This document shows positions 7,329-51,233 of a DNA stretch of 64,000 nt, one piece after another (the stretch's first letter is position 1; each line of letters starts with the position of its first letter). This DNA comes from an uncultured Dehalococcoidales bacterium (GTDB lineage: Bacteria > Chloroflexota > Dehalococcoidia > GIF9 > UBA5629). Location: assembly GCA_964400675.1 (NCBI GenBank), contig CAYNVO010000003.1:42576-106575 (forward strand). Reading direction: 5' to 3'. The translations under genes and the position numbers were made by a program. A model generated the notes under the pieces. It was not told where the DNA came from. It did no database searches and worked only from the letters and a program-made list of their open reading frames with translations.

Positions 7329-8399
7329 TCATGTAGTGTGATTATTCAAGTAACACTGAAAGCCATCCAAATGGATGTCAATTTCCTGCTTCAGCATTGG
7401 AAATAGTCGTTTACATTTCATTATGATGGCTCTTCGCTTGATGTCTTCATTTTTTTTACGGCCGTAACAGTCAACAACCTGCAATTTGGTGTGCATCCCC
7501 AGTGAACGGGAAAATAAATTCACCACCTTGCGATCATATTCTGGAAACGAATAACCGATTACTGTGACTATGTTCGCTGTTTTCAATTCCTTCTCTGCTG
7601 AAGACCAAAGAGGCTGAATCATCTTGGGGTATGGTTCATACGGAATAATTATGAAAGGTTGGACAGATTCGCCACAATTTTCAGAACACCTCTTATTATC
7701 GAAAAAATTCTTGAACATGAAAGGATAATACAGATGTAGATGATTACAGGAAGGACAAATCCCCCAATCGATAGACCCGTTAAGTTTGATAAGTTTTATG
7801 GGGTTGTTTTGTGCATAGAATTTTTTACGCTTATCGTCAATCCAATCAAATTTAAGCAAATAATCAAAGTAGACATTTGCATCAAAGTCTTCGTGTAAAA
7901 GAACGTCGAAATTGAAAGAAAGTATTGCAACTTGGCCTGGGTGATTGCTCTTCAAAACTCTGTCTATGAATCTCTTGTATAGAAGGTTTTCATGGCCAAT
8001 GCTGGACTCTGCTAAGTGCTCAAAAATTAACCTTCTAACGAGTTCTACCCCCTTGATATCTCCATTTTGTTGTAACATCATCAGGATTTCATCAACGTAA
8101 CGCCTTTTGTTCCGTAGCCTTTTATTCAGTATGCCACGTGTATCGAAAACCATATCGCCTCTCTCATCCCATTCTTTAAGAAGAAATTCGTATTCTGGAT
8201 AAATTGATGCAGCTAATTTAAGGAATTCACGATAATTGGAGAATCTTTCATTCTCCTCTTGAAGATCTGGACTCCCATTGTCATTATATGGAAGAAGTCG
8301 CCCACAATCCAACGGATAGTTCCAGACTAAGTCCCTTCCTAGTGGGGTATTGGCAGATGCTGCAGATGCTCCGGCCCCAAAAACATATACATGTTTCAT
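7329..8399 (-). CDS. SIR2-like (sirtuin / SIR2_2 DHS-like NAD-binding) domain protein.
   Basis: N-terminal VYVFGAGASAASANTPLGRDL resembles the sirtuin GAGIS..G.P.FR loop. SFNFDVLLHE resembles the (T)TNxDxLxE motif. IKLIKLNGSIDW resembles the SIR2_2 'KLHGSxxW' motif but has Asn where the catalytic His is expected. Cx2C...Cx2C Zn-ribbon (CPSC...CSENC). VIGYSF near the C-terminus. Confidence 0.55.
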   Translation of the reverse strand: MKHVYVFGAGASAASANTPLGRDLVWNYPLDCGRLLPYNDNGSPDLQEENERFSNYREFLKLAASIYPEYEFLLKEWDERGDMVFDTRGILNKRLRNKRRYVDEILMMLQQNGDIKGVELVRRLIFEHLAESSIGHENLLYKRFIDRVLKSNHPGQVAILSFNFDVLLHEDFDANVYFDYLLKFDWIDDKRKKFYAQNNPIKLIKLNGSIDWGICPSCNHLHLYYPFMFKNFFDNKRCSENCGESVQPFIIIPYEPYPKMIQPLWSSAEKELKTANIVTVIGYSFPEYDRKVVNLFSRSLGMHTKLQVVDCYGRKKNEDIKRRAIIMKCKRLFPMLKQEIDIHLDGFQCYLNNHTT

Positions 8400-8630: not shown

Positions 8631-9947
8631 TCAATGATAGCTGGCCAACTTAGAATCCAATGTTCTTTTTATACGTGTCTCTACAAATTCTTTCGTAAGC
8701 ATTTCATCGTAGCGAAAGTAGACCATGGTAACAGCGTTTTCAGAGCAAAGGCTTGCTTTCAATTTGTCACGTTCCTGTGTTTGTTGAAAACCATCCTCGC
8801 CACCAAAAAATGGGATAGGGTCATAATGTTGGCGTCCCTGATATTCAATTGCCAACCGGAGTTCAGGTACAAAGATGTCTAGTCGTTGTCTACCTAACCA
8901 TTCTGGACTTGCTTGATGGACAATTTCATTCTTGGGAAAAATGTCCTTCACCATATTCAGCAGTTCCCTTTCAGATACCCAGCCCTCGCCAATGTGCGGA
9001 ATGCCCAGTAGGTCACGTATTTCATTTTCGGCTTCATGCTCGTCGATATTTTTCTCGATGGCTATTCGTTTAATGTAAGGGCCATAGTGAACCTTCACAT
9101 TACTACCATACATCGGGTGGCAATAGAAAAGTTCAGAGGGAATATCACGGCAAAGATGGCAAATACCGCTTCGGAACTTAGATTTCTGATATGAAGCTAT
9201 AAACTTGTGAGCCCAACCGCTTTCTGCATAAGGATTTTTCTCCTCAACTGCTTTCAAATAGTGCTTCTCCAAGGCTGTTCTGAAACATTCGCAGAAATAA
9301 GACTTGCCACAAACCTTACATATGAACCTGATAATCCGGTCATCTATATATGCCGCCAGGTAATCAGGGTGACATTGACACGACGGAACAAGGTCATCGC
9401 CGATAGAAGTAAGAACTTCAACAGGAAGTCCTATATGTCCCCAATACCCCATGCGAATTATGTAACGGGAAACCGTTTTTAGATGCTTGCTCTTAACCTC
9501 GAGTGGTTTCGGGCAAATCAAATTAACGGGCTTCTCTAAGTGAATTACAGGAGAATCGTTATGCCTAACTATAATCGTGAACTCAAACCATCCCAATTCA
9601 ACCACCGATTGCCTGGGTAAATCCTTTAGGAACCAGGGAAGATGAATTATTGAAGGTTGAGGTGGATACCTGTATCTCGATGGCAGATGTGAATCCGGCG
9701 ACCCTATTAGCATATATTCGCGACTTAGAGACAAGCCTTTGGCAAACCGCGAAGGGCCAGGGTTGAAGCCTATTTTGAAACGAAGTATCTCTCCAGAAGC
9801 GACAAAATTCCTAAGTTGCTTGTCAAATTGCTCAACAACAAGTTGAATAATGAGTTCGGGTAAACTCCGCATTGGTGAACTTAGAATCTTGTCCTTCAAC
9901 CCACATCGAAACAGGTCAAAATCTATGTCCAGCCGGAGAGTAAACAC
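8631..9947 (-). CDS. Cys-rich (zinc-finger-like) protein with a C-terminal DUF559/Vsr-like endonuclease domain. N-terminal ~170 aa are unassigned.
   Basis: C-terminal RLDIFVPELRLAIEYQGRQH...QTQERDKLKASLCSENAVTMVYFRYDE fits the DUF559 pattern 'D..P..L.IE.DG.QH....RD..L...G..V.R'. Central Cys clusters CQCHPD, CKVCGKSYFCEC, CHLC. 231-bp gap to the SIR2-like gene on the same strand. Confidence 0.45.
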   Translation of the reverse strand: MFTLRLDIDFDLFRCGLKDKILSSPMRSLPELIIQLVVEQFDKQLRNFVASGEILRFKIGFNPGPSRFAKGLSLSREYMLIGSPDSHLPSRYRYPPQPSIIHLPWFLKDLPRQSVVELGWFEFTIIVRHNDSPVIHLEKPVNLICPKPLEVKSKHLKTVSRYIIRMGYWGHIGLPVEVLTSIGDDLVPSCQCHPDYLAAYIDDRIIRFICKVCGKSYFCECFRTALEKHYLKAVEEKNPYAESGWAHKFIASYQKSKFRSGICHLCRDIPSELFYCHPMYGSNVKVHYGPYIKRIAIEKNIDEHEAENEIRDLLGIPHIGEGWVSERELLNMVKDIFPKNEIVHQASPEWLGRQRLDIFVPELRLAIEYQGRQHYDPIPFFGGEDGFQQTQERDKLKASLCSENAVTMVYFRYDEMLTKEFVETRIKRTLDSKLASYH

Positions 9948-10109: not shown

Positions 10110-10652
10110 CTAAATCTGTCCTTTTACCTGGACCGGCAGGCAGGCGACCATGAGATAAACTTCGGTGGCGTGGCTGGCGAGTAGCTGGTTGGCTTTGCCC
10201 AGCAGGTCGCGGTAGATGCGGCCGAGCTTAGTTTCAGGTACCAGTCCCATGCCGACCTCGTTGGAAACGATGACGAAGCTGGCATCGAGCCTGTCCATGA
10301 CGGCGATAAGCTGGTTTATTTCAGAAAGCACCCTTTTTTCAGCTTCCGGGTAGTCAGGCTCGTCATGTAGCAGGTTGGAGATGAGCAGGGTGAGGCAGTC
10401 TATGATTACCAACCCGGCATCGCCGATTCCTTTCTCTATTCCTCTGCCGATGCCTGTTGATAGCTCCAGAGTGTGCCAGTTTTGGGGACGGTCTTTTTTG
10501 TGTTCGGCAATGCGAGCCTGCATTTCTTCATCGAGCGCCTCGCCGGTGGCGACGAAGAGGACTTTGTTGCTGAGCTCTTTAGCCAGTTGCTGGGCATAAT
10601 GGCTTTTGCCGCTGCGGGCGCCGCCGAGTAGAAGGATGATTTGTTTAGCCAT
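10110..10652 (-). CDS. cobU: Adenosylcobinamide kinase / adenosylcobinamide-phosphate guanylyltransferase.
   Basis: P-loop GGARSGKS and the VSNEVGMG...NQ CobU family motifs. 180 aa. Confidence 0.85.
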   Translation of the reverse strand: MAKQIILLLGGARSGKSHYAQQLAKELSNKVLFVATGEALDEEMQARIAEHKKDRPQNWHTLELSTGIGRGIEKGIGDAGLVIIDCLTLLISNLLHDEPDYPEAEKRVLSEINQLIAVMDRLDASFVIVSNEVGMGLVPETKLGRIYRDLLGKANQLLASHATEVYLMVACLPVQVKGQI

Positions 10653-10682
10653 TGTTGTGCTCCGAAATAGCGTTCATTTGTT

Positions 10683-11489
10683 TTACTGTGGTTGAGATTC
10701 TTCGCTGCGCTCAGAATGACAGGACGGGAAGATCTCAGAATGACAGGGCAAGAAGTGCTCAGAGTGATGGAGATTTGGATTCTTCGGTCGCTTTGCTCTC
10801 TCAGAATGACAGGAGGGGTTGCCAAGGCTGTACTCCTGTATATCTAATGTCCAGTGGTTGTCCCTGGATATGGGAACAGATTTACCTATTTTTACGGGCT
10901 TCTTGAACGCCGGTCCGTCATATACAAAAGTGTGGAACTCTCCGGCTTCGCCGCAGACGTCGATTTTTGATTTCGCCGCCAGCGCTTTAAGCTCGGAAGC
11001 CAGTTTGCCATCCACCTGCCTGCCCAGCCATTCCTTGCCGAAGAACTCGGTTTTTACGCTGACAACAATGGCTTTGAATCCAGCATCGATGAAGTCGGTC
11101 AGAAGACGGGCGCTGGCCATCCCCCACAGGGGCAGTATTGCCTTCACTCCTGATTCGCCACAGACCCGGTCTATCCAGTCCTTGTGTTCCTGCAGATATA
11201 TATCGCCGGTTATCAAGCCAGTTATGCCTTTGAGCTTAAGCTCGGCTAATGCTTCTTTGAACCCGGCTTCGTAGGTCTCCCAGGTGACTTTTTGCTGAAG
11301 TATGGGCAGAGCCATAGCCTGTGCCTGTAGAGCTATGAGTTTGCGGTCCAAGCCGTGAGACATAGCTCTGGTTGAGTCCGTGTTTATAAAGTTGAGCAGA
11401 TGGCTGACCTTTAAGCCCTGGGAAATCGCTTTCCAGCAGGCAAAGCAACTGTCCTTGCCACCGCTCCATGAAGCTGCATATTCAGTCAT
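10683..11489 (-). CDS. PP-loop ATPase of the MJ0570/Dph6 (ATP_bind_4, diphthine-ammonia-ligase-like) family. C-terminal ~40 aa are read through the repeat array.
   Basis: SWSGGKDS PP-loop at the N-terminus. CGEAGEFHTFVYDGP matches the Dph6-family 'GEgGEyHT.V.DgP' block. The C-terminal tail (CHSE repeats) is translated from the tandem repeat, so the real stop may differ. Confidence 0.6.
   Translation of the reverse strand: MTEYAASWSGGKDSCFACWKAISQGLKVSHLLNFINTDSTRAMSHGLDRKLIALQAQAMALPILQQKVTWETYEAGFKEALAELKLKGITGLITGDIYLQEHKDWIDRVCGESGVKAILPLWGMASARLLTDFIDAGFKAIVVSVKTEFFGKEWLGRQVDGKLASELKALAAKSKIDVCGEAGEFHTFVYDGPAFKKPVKIGKSVPISRDNHWTLDIQEYSLGNPSCHSERAKRPKNPNLHHSEHFLPCHSEIFPSCHSERSEESQPQ
10693..10816. 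repeat. Degenerate tandem array of about four copies of the CCTGTCATTCTGAG-containing unit (minus-strand reading), related to the element at 50.1 kb.
   Basis: Minus strand reads CCTGTCATTCTGAGAGAGCAAAGCGACCGAAGAATCCAAATCTC / CCATCACTCTGAGCACTTCTTG / CCCTGTCATTCTGAGATCTTCCCGT / CCTGTCATTCTGAGCGCAGCGAAGAATCTCA. It overlaps the 3' end of ORF 10683..11489. Confidence 0.6.
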
Positions 11490-20294: not shown

Positions 20295-20430
20295 CCCCCT
20301 TACTCCGCGGAGGTAGCCATACCTAGTAGGGTCGATGTTCTGACTATTACAGCAGGCGGGACTGTGCCGGGATTTCACCGGCTTGCATTCCAATTAAGCC
20401 CAAGATTGCCCCTGGGCACCCTACCGCAGC
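20295..20430 (-). promoter_or_regulatory. Cobalamin (B12) riboswitch aptamer in the leader of the btuF-cobU operon.
   Basis: Minus-strand sequence ...GGTAGGGTGCCCAGGGGCAATCTTGGGCTTAATTGGAATGCAAGCCGGTGAAATCCCGGCACAGTCCCGCCTGCTGTAATAG...CCCTACTAGG contains the B12-box-like core GCCGGTGAAATCCCGGC-CAGTCCCGCC-CTGTAA and a closing P1 (GGTAGGG...CCCTACT). ORF 20347..20598(-) inside it is judged spurious. Confidence 0.7.
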
Positions 20431-20627
20431 TATTAAGTTTGTTAACAGAATACCTGGAAATCGGTATAAAGTCAATAGAGCCAATATATCGAATGAGCCG
20501 GGCATACTACAAATCACCTTTCCTGATTGCCGGCTAGTTGCTTTCTGCTGATTTAGAATAAATCTTGATTGATGTATTACTGGCAACCTACTTGACAAAG
20601 ATCCGTCGTTCCTTTATTTTATGAGTA

Positions 20628-49996: not shown

Positions 49997-50060
49997 GCTA
50001 AGGGAAAAACAATTGTGATTTTGTCATACGTGCGAGGAGCCATTCAGCAGAAGGACGACG

Positions 50061-50133
50061 TGGCAATCTCACAGTCGAGGGCGCATCAGTGAGATTGCTT
50101 CGCTCCGCTCGCAATGACAGTTTGAGCTACGGA
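50061..50133. repeat. Small repeat element with a 10-bp perfect inverted repeat (GCAATCTCAC-16 nt-GTGAGATTGC) and a CTGTCATTGCGAGCGGAGCGAAGCAATCTC core on the minus strand. Flanked by GGACGAC direct repeats.
   Basis: Same core as the 10.7-kb array. GGACGAC at 50053-50059 and 50131-50137 could be a target-site duplication. Confidence 0.5.
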
Positions 50134-50153
50134 CGACATCTAAAGGAGAACAG

Positions 50154-51233
50154 ATGACAGATAAGCTTAAAGTTGCCATAGTGGGTTGTGGTGCTGTAGC
50201 CGAAAAGCGCCATATTCCCGGTTTCGCCAGATTGAAAGACAGGGTTGCTGTGCGGGCTGTATGTGATAAAAATGAAGAATTGGCAAGACAAGTCGCTTTG
50301 AGACATCGAATTCCCAGAGTTTTTGTTAGCCAGACAGAGATGCTCAAGGCTGAAAAAGTCGACATAGTTGACGTCTGCACTCCACCTCAGATACACGCTC
50401 CCATAGCAGTTGAAGCGCTTGAAGCCGGTTGCCATGTGCTGATGGAAAAGCCCATGGCACTTAATACTGCTGACTGTGACAAAATGATAGAGGCAGCAAC
50501 AAAGAACAACCGCAAACTTTGCGTTGTTCATAACGTGCTTTTTCATCCCCCGCTTATCAAAGCCAGGGAGCTGGTCAAAGCGGGAGCCATAGGCAACTTC
50601 ATAGGTATGAGAATCCTATTATCAGACCCCAAAGACGAAATGATAATGCGCCAGGACTACTGGATACACAAGCTGCCCGGTGGATTGATTGGTGAAACCG
50701 GCCCTCACCCTGTTTACGTCTCCCTGGCTTTTCTGGATAAGGTTAATAACGTAGAAGTATTTGCCAAAAATTACCTGGAGCATCCCTGGGCACCTTTTGA
50801 TGAGTTCAGGCTCGAACTTGATGCTGATAATGGCATGAGCTCAGTGGCTATCTCATATTCCGGTGAACGATATGCTGCGGAGGTAGAGATATTCGGCTCA
50901 GAAGGTGCTCTTTATATAGACCTCCAGAGCATGCTGCTGGTGAAACACGGCACTAAGAAAACGCTCAGTTCTGCTAAGTTAGTCTCAACATCTTTCAGTA
51001 CGGTAACGCAAATTATCGGCGGTCTCATAGCCAACGGGTTCAAGACAACCACTGGCCAGTTCAGAGTGGGACATGAAAAAATAGTGGAGCTATTTGTCGA
51101 TAGCATTATTAAAGATACCACTCCGCCTGTTACAGGTGAAGAAGGGCGGGAAGTTATAAGGGTAATGGAGATGATAGTTGACAGGCTTTATGGCAAATAC
51201 GGTCGCCCTCAACCATCTGAACCTAGAACCTAG
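50154..51233 (+). CDS. Gfo/Idh/MocA family NAD(P)-dependent sugar oxidoreductase.
   Basis: VAIVGCGAVAEKRHIPGF Rossmann N-terminus, EKP motif (LMEKPMA). The C-terminus ends inside the heptamer array. Confidence 0.8.
   Translation: MTDKLKVAIVGCGAVAEKRHIPGFARLKDRVAVRAVCDKNEELARQVALRHRIPRVFVSQTEMLKAEKVDIVDVCTPPQIHAPIAVEALEAGCHVLMEKPMALNTADCDKMIEAATKNNRKLCVVHNVLFHPPLIKARELVKAGAIGNFIGMRILLSDPKDEMIMRQDYWIHKLPGGLIGETGPHPVYVSLAFLDKVNNVEVFAKNYLEHPWAPFDEFRLELDADNGMSSVAISYSGERYAAEVEIFGSEGALYIDLQSMLLVKHGTKKTLSSAKLVSTSFSTVTQIIGGLIANGFKTTTGQFRVGHEKIVELFVDSIIKDTTPPVTGEEGREVIRVMEMIVDRLYGKYGRPQPSEPRT

Follow-up and report, generated by a model that had tools for sequence, protein, structure and literature searches.

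Two repeat elements in the window

The 64 kb stretch of an uncultured Dehalococcoidales genome analysed here (the window) carries, on its minus strand near 10.7 kb, a gene for a diphthine-ammonia-ligase-like PP-loop ATPase followed by cobU, and an array of short repeats occupies the junction between these two genes. A second element built from the same kind of unit is located near 50.1 kb. The feature is quite probably a local cluster of short, hairpin-forming interspersed repeats of the repetitive extragenic palindromic (REP) type, belonging to the superfamily tagged with CGTC or TGTC. What is new is the Dehalococcoidia instance with its reconstructed history, and the much wider phyletic range of the subfamily. 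Coordinates are collected in Table 1; L-numbers denote loci from relatives and other genomes that were used for comparison.

The array spans positions 10694-10812 of the minus strand and consists of two complete units, one reading CTGTCATTCTGAGCGCAGCGAAGAATCTC and the other a variant with a long loop, together with two copies of the head of the unit only. The preliminary description of this DNA had counted four degenerate copies; four head positions do exist, but they are not four equivalent units. On the plus strand, 10694-10722 reads GAGATTCTTCGCTGCGCTCAGAATGACAG, a complete minus-strand unit that matches the family pattern with 0 mismatches where 0 matches are expected by chance, and the full 29-mer pattern occurs only this once in the window. 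The 13-mer head CTCAGAATGACAG is present in three exact copies, at 10710, 10734 and 10800, and in a degenerate copy at 10757; Tandem Repeats Finder reports a 24-nt period across 10709-10767. From the end of the PP-loop gene, the minus strand reads GAG TAC AGC CTT GGC (...EYSLG), AACCCCTC, unit 2, the degenerate head, the head-only copy, unit 1, AACCACAG and a TAA stop. Unit 1 is laid out as tag (C)TGTC, stem ATTCT, GA, mini-hairpin GCGCAGC, GA, stem AGAAT and tail CTC. Unit 2 has a 13-nt insertion in its loop according to the covariance-model alignment, and is also found in two relatives (L002 and L127).

A covariance model trained on family members and run over the 64 kb identified three complete units, all on the minus strand (10690-10725, 10772-10815 and 50087-50123; scores in Table 1), and nothing else above noise. 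A weak match at 8275-8315 on the plus strand (9.9 bits, E 2.1), reading TTGTCATT...AATCC, lacks the conserved core and most likely arose by chance. The array was also considered as a CRISPR array and rejected as such: such an array has identical repeats of 23-50 nt and unique spacers of comparable length, whereas here the repeated part is only 13 nt long, the spacers are 10-11 nt long and mutually similar, and the period is 24 nt. The spacers next to the head-only copies were also compared with the beginning of an inverted unit (GAG-ATTCTTCGC), which gave a partial likeness and no consistent model.

The recurrence of the core near 50.1 kb noted in the preliminary description is borne out by the complete unit found there. 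The element as a whole (50022-50120) is an inverted heterodimer whose two units face each other tail to tail with their tags outward, the left partner reading TGTCAT...GGCAATCTC on the plus strand; this is the usual dimer form of the family. The right unit has a stem of ATTGC/GCAAT in place of ATTCT/AGAAT, which is a compensatory change. The perfect 10-bp inverted repeat described earlier (GCAATCTCAC at 50064-50073 and GTGAGATTGC at 50089-50098) corresponds to the facing tails of the doublet. Both copies of GGACGAC are likewise present (50053-50059 and 50131-50137), but they do not form the flanking direct repeats proposed earlier: the left copy lies within the left unit, so the pair is not a target duplication. 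With RNA parameters the whole element folds as one long hairpin of -36.7 kcal/mol, and a DNA fold was also computed.

Two relatives in which the downstream Gfo/Idh/MocA protein is 88% and 78% identical (L252 and L254) have only a 15-nt spacer at the orthologous site, with no doublet, so that the doublet and the new Shine-Dalgarno sequence in the window constitute an insertion. The closest relatives (91% identical Gfo/Idh/MocA protein) carry a different insertion of about 100 nt in the same spacer (L249 2387-2500 and L251 313-426), which is rich in AGAACTTAGAAC-like tandem repeats; small repeats seem to have a hot spot in this spacer. Genes of the Gfo/Idh/MocA type adjoin a unit in four unrelated loci (L042, L089, L106 and L109) as well as in the window (50154-51233), probably by chance.

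Table 1. Positions of the repeat units, neighbouring genes and duplicated segments in the 64 kb window
Feature	Position	Strand	Evidence
cobU (cobinamide kinase / cobinamide phosphate guanylyltransferase), downstream of the array	10110..10652	-	PF02283, E 1.8e-56
Right copy of the duplicated junction segment, GGAGCACAACAATGGC; supplies the cobU Shine-Dalgarno sequence (GGAG) and ATG start	10648..10663	-	Allele comparison
C-terminal extension of 45 aa encoded by the repeats, NPSCHSERAKRPKNPNLHHSEHFLPCHSEIFPSCHSERSEESQPQ	10686..10820	-	ORF translation and homolog comparison; stop codon 10683-10685
Complete REP unit 1	10694..10722	-	Exact pattern match; covariance model 51.7 bits, E 1.6e-11; hairpin predicted
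Head-only copy CTGTCATTCTGAG (10734-10746) with 11-nt pyrimidine-rich spacer ATCTTCCCGTC (10723-10733)	10723..10746	-	Exact 13-mer; 24-nt period
Degenerate head-only copy CCATCACTCTGAGC with spacer ACTTCTTGCC	10747..10769	-	Repeat family D2, 10757-10767, 91% identity
Complete REP unit 2, long-loop variant: CTGTCATTCTGAG-AGAGCAAAGCGACC-GAAGAATCC, then AAATCTC	10770..10812	-	Covariance model 31.3 bits, E 4.4e-06
PP-loop ATPase gene, conserved part, residues 1-223 (Diphthami_syn_2 family, diphthine-ammonia-ligase-like)	10821..11489	-	PF01902, E 1.4e-55
Left copy of the duplicated junction segment, GGAGTACAGCCTTGGC, last PP-loop codons	10821..10836	-	Allele comparison
Left partner of the doublet, degenerate long-loop TGTC unit: TGTCAT-ACG-TGCGAGGAGCC...GACGTGGCAATCTC	50022..50070	+	Aligned to the reverse complement of the right unit
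Right partner of the doublet, complete unit of the GC stem type, CTGTCATTGCGAGCGGAGCGAAGCAATCTC	50091..50120	-	Covariance model 29.6 bits, E 1.3e-05

The junction between the PP-loop gene and cobU

As previously reported, the array lies in frame at the 3' end of the PP-loop gene. The open reading frame (ORF) at 10683-11489 of the minus strand runs through it because the insertion contains no in-frame stop, and the predicted extension of about 40 aa with CHSE repeats amounts to 45 aa. The PF01902 match covers residues 5-221 of the 268-aa product, and the conserved protein ends at Gly223 (10821-10823). Most of the best 120 homologs, which are 72-90% identical, have 219-223 aa and end in ...EYSLG. 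The conserved C-terminal motif could be located in 93 top homologs, 78 of which end in ...EYSLG; in 14 others the repeats contribute a tail that, counting from the conserved Gly, measures 15-43 residues, compared to 46 in the window. About 85% of close homologs are tail-less, and the minority with the same insertion hold between one and five units: a one-unit allele translates to GNPVCHSERSEESHP, an allele with two head-only copies and a unit translates to GDPASHSEPFPSCHSEPFPSCHSERSEESHP, and other alleles have, for example, a long-loop unit followed by a unit. In a neighbor-joining tree of the conserved part of the protein, filled and empty alleles are interleaved.

Most relatives lack the array, and comparison with their orthologous cob operons makes the insertion point visible. 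L001 and L003 represent the empty state: there, the stop of the PP-loop gene overlaps the TTG start of cobU (...CTT GGC TAA / TTG GCT AAA), giving a gene overlap of 8 nt. The junction segment is present once at these sites and flanks the insertion on both sides in the window, L002, L125 and L126. All filled alleles (the window, L002, L125, L126 and L127) have the left junction GGC | (A/G)AC CC... in common, as well as a downstream filler, ...TAAAACAAATGAAC..., that resembles a decayed copy of the old cobU start. The second GGAG...TTGGC segment is found in every filled allele except L127, where it is barely recognizable. In L125, which has a single unit, the duplicated copies differ at 2 of 17 positions and cobU still starts with TTG; in the window, cobU starts with ATG instead of TTG. 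The filled alleles differ in the content of the array, the window having one more 24-nt block of spacer and head (10723-10746) than L002.

Given the shared insertion point, the shared downstream sequence and the duplicated segment, we infer one ancestral insertion. In an ancestor of this Dehalococcoidia lineage, one unit would have entered the PP-loop gene at the exact boundary between its last sense codon, GGC, and its stop. Since that stop overlapped the cobU start, the junction segment with its Shine-Dalgarno sequence and start would have been duplicated downstream, keeping cobU translatable. Since then the cluster may have expanded and contracted as a block combining the left arm with about 10 nt of flank underwent tandem duplication, giving the one to five heads seen among relatives. 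By this reconstruction from allele sequences, the history of the locus would comprise a single ancestral insertion, a junction duplication that rescued cobU, and subsequent expansion and contraction of the array. For the scattered occurrence of filled alleles, loss via the flanking direct repeats or an exchange of alleles would be the best explanation. The locus offers a case of an operon junction rebuilt after an insertion, in which cobU gained its own ribosome-binding site and an ATG replacing the overlapping TTG.

One relative, L126, has an additional heterodimer at the cobT-cobS junction of the same operon (L126 2140-2205), where the gap in the window is 11 nt; a unit of another stem type, TGTCACCCTGAACAAAGTGAAGGGTCTGG, is paired there with an inverted unit of the CT type, antisense to transcription. 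The operon, about 10 kb long, on the minus strand and ending in cobT-cobS-PP-loop-cobU, is headed in the window by a cobalamin riboswitch (RF00174, 38.5 bits) at 20313-20438, and in relatives it also contains B12 transport genes and genes of the cobD/cobC/cbiP/cobO type. The diphthine-ammonia-ligase-like PP-loop gene is kept between cobS and cobU in this lineage, although what it would do in cobamide salvage is not evident. Gene content downstream of cobU varies, in that relatives carry a DEAD-box helicase, an alpha/beta hydrolase or an RRM protein at this position, and the window has a 438-aa ORF (8631-9947, minus strand) with no Pfam match at E up to 0.001.

The hairpin unit and its distribution

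Each unit is about 29 nt long and comprises an unpaired tag, (C/T)TGTC, a 5-bp stem, a tandem G·A / A·G step, the apex GCGNAGC, the return arm and an unpaired 3-nt tail, CTC or CCA. In the pairing of ATTCTGAG with CGAAGAAT, the stem starts with A-T, T-A and T-A, continues with two covarying pairs and then two G·A steps, and ends with a G-C pair. The free dinucleotide of the stem is Watson-Crick complementary to its partner in 128 of 138 genome matches and 132 of 142 viral matches, and it falls into four stem types: CT/AG, CC/GG, GC/GC (nearly always with one extra A) and TC/GA. In alignment A3, standard pairs occupy 99.5% of cells, and there are 48 double-sided changes compared to 15.8 in shuffled versions. 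The stem of the hairpin is thus maintained by compensatory change. Counting 8 positions for the stem leaves a 5-nt loop, CGNAG, which amounts to a GNA triloop with two closing G-C pairs; longer loops occur in unit 2 and in the left partner at 50 kb. All three complete units in the window begin with TGTC, and a search that left the tag free found 73 units with TGTC and 11 with CGTC. The same search found the tails CTC in 32 and CCA in 21, CTC being the tail in the window and in most matches and CCA that of the alphaproteobacterial GC stem type.

The apex is a known DNA motif. The heptamer GCGNAGC, with any base as N, is the mini-hairpin DNA of Hirao, held by two G-C pairs and a sheared G·A pair, with a melting temperature of 70-76 C; it is resistant to nucleases and makes polymerases pause, the origin of phage G4, ssiA and the promoters of phage N4 make use of it, and the variant with N = A is the most stable in the published series (PMC13037366). 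At the variable position, the genome set of the family has A in 62 units, C in 30, G in 24 and T in 22. The resemblance to mini-hairpin DNA, d(GCGNAGC) or d(GCGNNAGC), is that the apex of every unit is GCGNAGC; the difference is that the mini-hairpin is a physical motif and not a repeat family. The mini-hairpin can form only on the strand that carries TGTC, as its complement reads GCTNCGC. A link between mini-hairpin DNA and REP-type repeats is our own proposal and is not stated in that review. Units of the CGTC-1 family appear to carry GCGAAAGC, judging from their PAKAG-type peptides.

A search with the pattern TGTCATTNNGAGCGNAGCGAN{2,3}AATC, which has 21 specified bases and an estimated chance expectation of about 0.5 in 596 Gb over both strands, returned at least 120 loci in a collection with one genome per species and at least 120 loci in the viral contigs of IMG/VR. 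Among the genome matches listed are Chloroflexota, Nitrospirota, Acidobacteriota, Bacteroidota, Ignavibacteria, Alpha-, Beta-, Gamma- and Deltaproteobacteria, Planctomycetota, Verrucomicrobiota, Gemmatimonadota, Firmicutes, Fibrobacter, Omnitrophica, lineages of the candidate phyla radiation and a Nanoarchaeota genome bin. The family is not an artifact of metagenome binning, because it is also present on plasmids of cultured Calothrix, Nostoc PCC 7120, Granulicella, Methylosinus, Methylobacterium and Novosphingobium; plasmid pSA1 of N. resinovorum has a unit in 34 places. The cultured-phage collection INPHARED contained no match to the pattern. Several units per 8 kb locus are found in other genomes.

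The proposal in the preliminary description of a small, REP-like family that has landed in operon junctions is therefore well founded: both window loci are insertions relative to relatives, L126 has its own doublet at cobT-cobS, and the units are dispersed in many genomes. There are far more than the two copies that would have suggested a conserved functional RNA, and no Rfam family matches. At the gathering threshold, Rfam 15 detected only the cobalamin riboswitch in the whole window, and at E up to 10 the two repeat regions gave only chance-level matches to small nucleolar RNA and microRNA families.

Most units lie between genes (116 of 139), and the remainder are found near the ends of ORFs. 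Their orientation relative to flanking genes shows no bias (++25, --24, +-23 and -+16 among the 139) and is thus independent of transcription. No transposase was recognized among clusters of ORFs near units, either in a first set of 120 genome loci or in a second set of ORFs lying up to 1.5 kb from units at 240 loci, with recurrent families judged from representative sequences or homology annotation; the recurrent neighbors looked like housekeeping proteins (enoyl reductase, ABC ATPase, GAF-phosphatase, Gfo/Idh/MocA, MoxR and thiolase) or phage structural proteins. A full-text literature search with 11- and 12-mers of the unit and with the encoded peptides returned nothing beyond primer coincidences. 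Eight Acidobacteriota loci (L012, L021, L055, L062, L067, L091, L105 and L123) have in common an upstream block, ...CACAGGCTGCGGAAAAA, about 8-12 nt before the TGTC tag, so the repeated element may be larger in that phylum. Related phage contigs (within L129-L248) carry several co-oriented units beside genes that look structural (portal- or tail-like, by reading), and 24 viral loci have one ORF family in common; phages could be the vehicle that moves the family between phyla.

Two features of the architecture recur across phyla. An inverted partner within 70 nt downstream, with tags outward, accompanies 43 of 132 genome units and 22 of 138 viral units. Head-only copies stand upstream on the same strand in 16 of the 132 genome units (12%), compared to no tail-only copies, and in 11 viral units compared to 1. 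They have periods of mostly 19-25 nt and end at or just past the apex of the hairpin, and the short pyrimidine-rich spacer is repeated as well. The repeated block consists of about 8-13 nt of flank and TGTCATTYYGAGC, as seen in L006, L010, L034, L084, L094, L101, L103, L109, L112, L118 and L119. The window array (10723-10769) is an instance of this recurrent pattern.

The units also show a preference of strand. With local GC skew as the proxy for replication direction, and with viral loci that are phylogenetically redundant, the TGTC strand coincides with the locally C-rich strand in 48 versus 26 genome loci (p 0.014) and in 82 versus 25 viral loci, independently of which strand holds the majority of coding sequence. 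Among units more than 300 nt apart, co-orientation prevails at 6:2 for genome loci and 27:1 for viral loci. The plus strand of the window has a GC skew of +0.045 and is G-rich across the minus-strand cob operon as well, and all three complete units are on the minus strand. These observations suggest a replication-strand bias. Pausing or breakage at the apex would promote tandem duplication of the upstream flank and left arm, yielding head-only arrays, and may also explain the C-rich-strand preference. Selection or mechanism would favor one replication strand. If the units matter at all, they would do so as hairpins of single-stranded DNA.

Alternative readings and known repeat systems

Three other explanations were weighed against a dispersed REP-type repeat. 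The CHSE repeats could be a selected C-terminal peptide module of the PP-loop protein, such as a Cys/His metal-binding tail, in view of a frame that is open across 135 nt and kept in all filled alleles and of the recurrent Cys-His-Ser-Glu motif. A conserved frame is nevertheless expected without selection, because the 24-nt period is a multiple of 3 and the filled alleles share one insertion. The tails are highly variable in length and content, some copies having F, R, S, G or Y in place of Cys, they are missing from the large majority of close homologs, and the Pfam domain stops before them, at residue 221; the same DNA is intergenic elsewhere, on both strands and in many phyla. Ordinary coding sequence conserved in homologs, which the preliminary description had set against a mobile family, was not seen, as the tail is not conserved. 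A selected module is thus extremely improbable, and the 45-aa tail is most likely a tolerated by-product, as judged from the alleles compared, and not a functional domain. It should not be read as a domain of the 268-aa annotated protein, and repeats of this kind create spurious or extended ORFs in metagenome-assembled genomes, recognizable by peptides of the CHSERSEES, VILSAAKNL and LRFAQNDK types.

The array might instead act as a functional RNA within the operon, its hairpins shielding the upstream cob mRNA from 3' exonucleases or uncoupling the translation of cobU from that of the PP-loop gene. Classical REPs act as an RNA stabilizer and uncoupler in the malEFG operon of Escherichia coli. 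The setting would suit such a role, as the array lies within a long riboswitch-headed operon, just before the last gene, with its units in the orientation that forms hairpins in the sense RNA, and the insertion swapped an 8-nt gene overlap for a separate Shine-Dalgarno sequence and ATG. Di Nocera et al. make the case for transcription of many REPs and for a possible role as RNA (PMC3733652). On the other hand, the predicted RNA hairpins are no more stable than those of shuffled sequences (-6 kcal/mol and z -0.2 for a unit, z +1.9 for the whole array), and there is no terminator-like site: neither element contains a promoter- or terminator-like sequence, and the few consensus matches outside the repeats are at or barely above the level of shuffles. 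Neither the lack of orientation bias nor the absence of an Rfam match fits an RNA function, most relatives do without the array, and the 50 kb unit and the cobT-cobS unit of L126 are antisense to transcription, so that the two window loci lie in opposite senses. The intra-operon RNA structure entertained in the preliminary description therefore finds no support in folding or orientation, and we regard it as unlikely. Lastly, the 13-mer heads at 24-bp spacing could be iteron-like sites at which a regulator or transposase binds double-stranded DNA, comparable to plasmid iterons or the ends of Tn7-type elements; they are direct repeats with a period of about two helical turns, and head-only arrays with periods of mostly 19-25 nt occur in several phyla. 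Because the spacers within one array resemble each other, however, the arrays look like recent tandem duplications and not like conserved spaced sites, and copy number differs among near-identical alleles. The compensatory changes in the stem point to a folded single strand and not to a duplex site, and no recurrent neighboring gene for a binding protein was found in the ORF clusters of the 240 loci. Iteron-like sites are, in our view, very unlikely.

A broader reading is that a conserved process working on single-stranded DNA generates and preserves the repeats, with a host primase, a replication-restart factor, a repair nuclease or an unrecognized HUH-type enzyme as candidates. It draws on 26-29 nt that are near-invariant in more than 12 bacterial phyla, a DPANN archaeon bin and phage contigs, together with the C-rich-strand bias and the arrays that end at the apex. 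We hold this to be a speculative possibility, rather doubtful at present; if true, it would address a question open since 2013, namely how REPs that lack a transposase spread. The mini-hairpin link, the head-only arrays and the strand bias are leads and not established findings, and would provide a handle on the origin of such repeats if they hold in complete genomes.

Among known systems, the GTAG-tagged REPs and REPINs with their RAYT (TnpA-REP) transposases resemble the family in being imperfect hairpins with a tag, in forming doublets that fold as one larger hairpin, in being dispersed between genes and, presumably, in being recognized as single-stranded DNA. We rejected an assignment to that system, as the tag here is TGTC or CGTC and not GTAG, and neither RAYT nor any other recurrent transposase-like ORF family was found at the 240 sampled loci. 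Moreover, GTAG REPs are specific to a species or genus, whereas the units described here are nearly identical across phyla. Readings of the core as a hammerhead-like (CUGA...GAA), C/D-box or kink-turn motif were also rejected, since it is without the required nucleotides and has no Rfam support. Miniature inverted-repeat transposable elements have terminal inverted repeats, a short target-site duplication of fixed length and a parent insertion sequence. The doublets have inverted ends that start with TGTCATT, and no short target-site duplication was seen at 50 kb; the flanking duplication at 10.7 kb, about 16-17 nt including the Shine-Dalgarno sequence and start of cobU, looks selected rather than mechanistic. 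A parent insertion sequence for the units was not found.

The small dispersed repeats (SDR) of Nostocaceae were reportedly described by Elhai and colleagues in 2008. They are similar in being very small (21-27 nt) and mobile, in having no known transposase and in being identical in divergent genomes. They have been reported only in Nostocaceae (PMC5861425).

Rickettsia palindromic elements (RPEs) are likewise short and palindromic and belong to the same superfamily; they enter genes in frame and add a peptide while leaving the protein intact. They are usually located inside genes, whereas the window insertion, in a Dehalococcoidia lineage, replaces a stop codon and adds a C-terminal tail. RPEs are also longer, at about 100-150 nt.

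The closest match is to the CGTC superfamily described in 2013 by Di Nocera, De Gregorio and Rocco (BMC Genomics 14:522; PMC3733652). That work sorts REPs into GTAG- and CGTC-tagged superfamilies. The CGTC families, CGTC-1 to CGTC-4, have a CGTC tag, for which many members show TGTC or CCTC, a stem that spans 8-9 positions and opens with complementary A/T pairs, a loop of 4-5 nt that is longer in some families, and an unpaired 3-nt tail with the consensus CCA. Dimers with tags outward predominate, heterodimers are common in CGTC-2 and CGTC-3, intragenic units occur, and transposase genes are not associated with the repeats; tags also point outward, as in the window family, in the supplement's intragenic dimers (VIPGLDPGIH...DGRVKPGHD). 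The superfamily was recorded in 5 phyla, mainly in Alphaproteobacteria, and includes RPE-4 and RPE-6 of Rickettsia (CGTC-4 and CGTC-1, respectively) and dRS3 of Neisseria; CGTC-2 has a stem of 8 and a loop of 5, and a Novosphingobium species and a Sphingobium species are listed as its hosts.

Several results weigh against so close an assignment. The window holds only 2 loci by the covariance model, no transposon-typical target-site duplication was found at either, and the strand statistics depend on a proxy and on redundant viral loci, as stated above. Single units are predicted to form a hairpin with either RNA or DNA nearest-neighbor parameters, but one no more stable than that of shuffled sequence, so that folding energy alone is no evidence; because these parameters do not model the sheared G·A mini-hairpin, the stability of the unit rests on the literature. 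In the Di Nocera supplement, there are no GTCATT or GAGCG strings and no CHSERSEES-type entry in the list of intragenic peptides. The window units are probably CGTC-2-like, a judgment made on stem and loop lengths and hosts as given in the 2013 paper, and not on consensus sequences.

We nevertheless place the window units in the CGTC/TGTC superfamily because tag, stem, loop, tail and dimers match, and because the copy on pSA1 of N. resinovorum, CGTCATTGCGAGCGAAGCGAAGCAATCCAG - 16 nt - CTGGATTGCTTCGCTTCGCTCGCAATcACG, is a perfect CGTC-tagged dimer with a CCA tail and the same core as the 50 kb unit. The units show the features that define the superfamily, namely the tag, the stem, the 4-5 nt loop, the 3-nt tail and the inverted dimers. 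They agree with it further in the A/T-first stem, in tags-outward dimers and heterodimers, in units within genes or at gene ends, in the lack of a transposase and in the occurrence in distant phyla. They differ in the tandem G·A step inside the "8-bp stem" with its invariant GCGNAGC apex, and in the frequency of head-only tandem arrays, which involve 8-12% of units here, whereas the paper has grouped elements as rare and head-to-tail dimers as negligible. The subfamily is also found in many more phyla, including Chloroflexota, which extends the known range of CGTC/TGTC REPs to Dehalococcoidia and well beyond.

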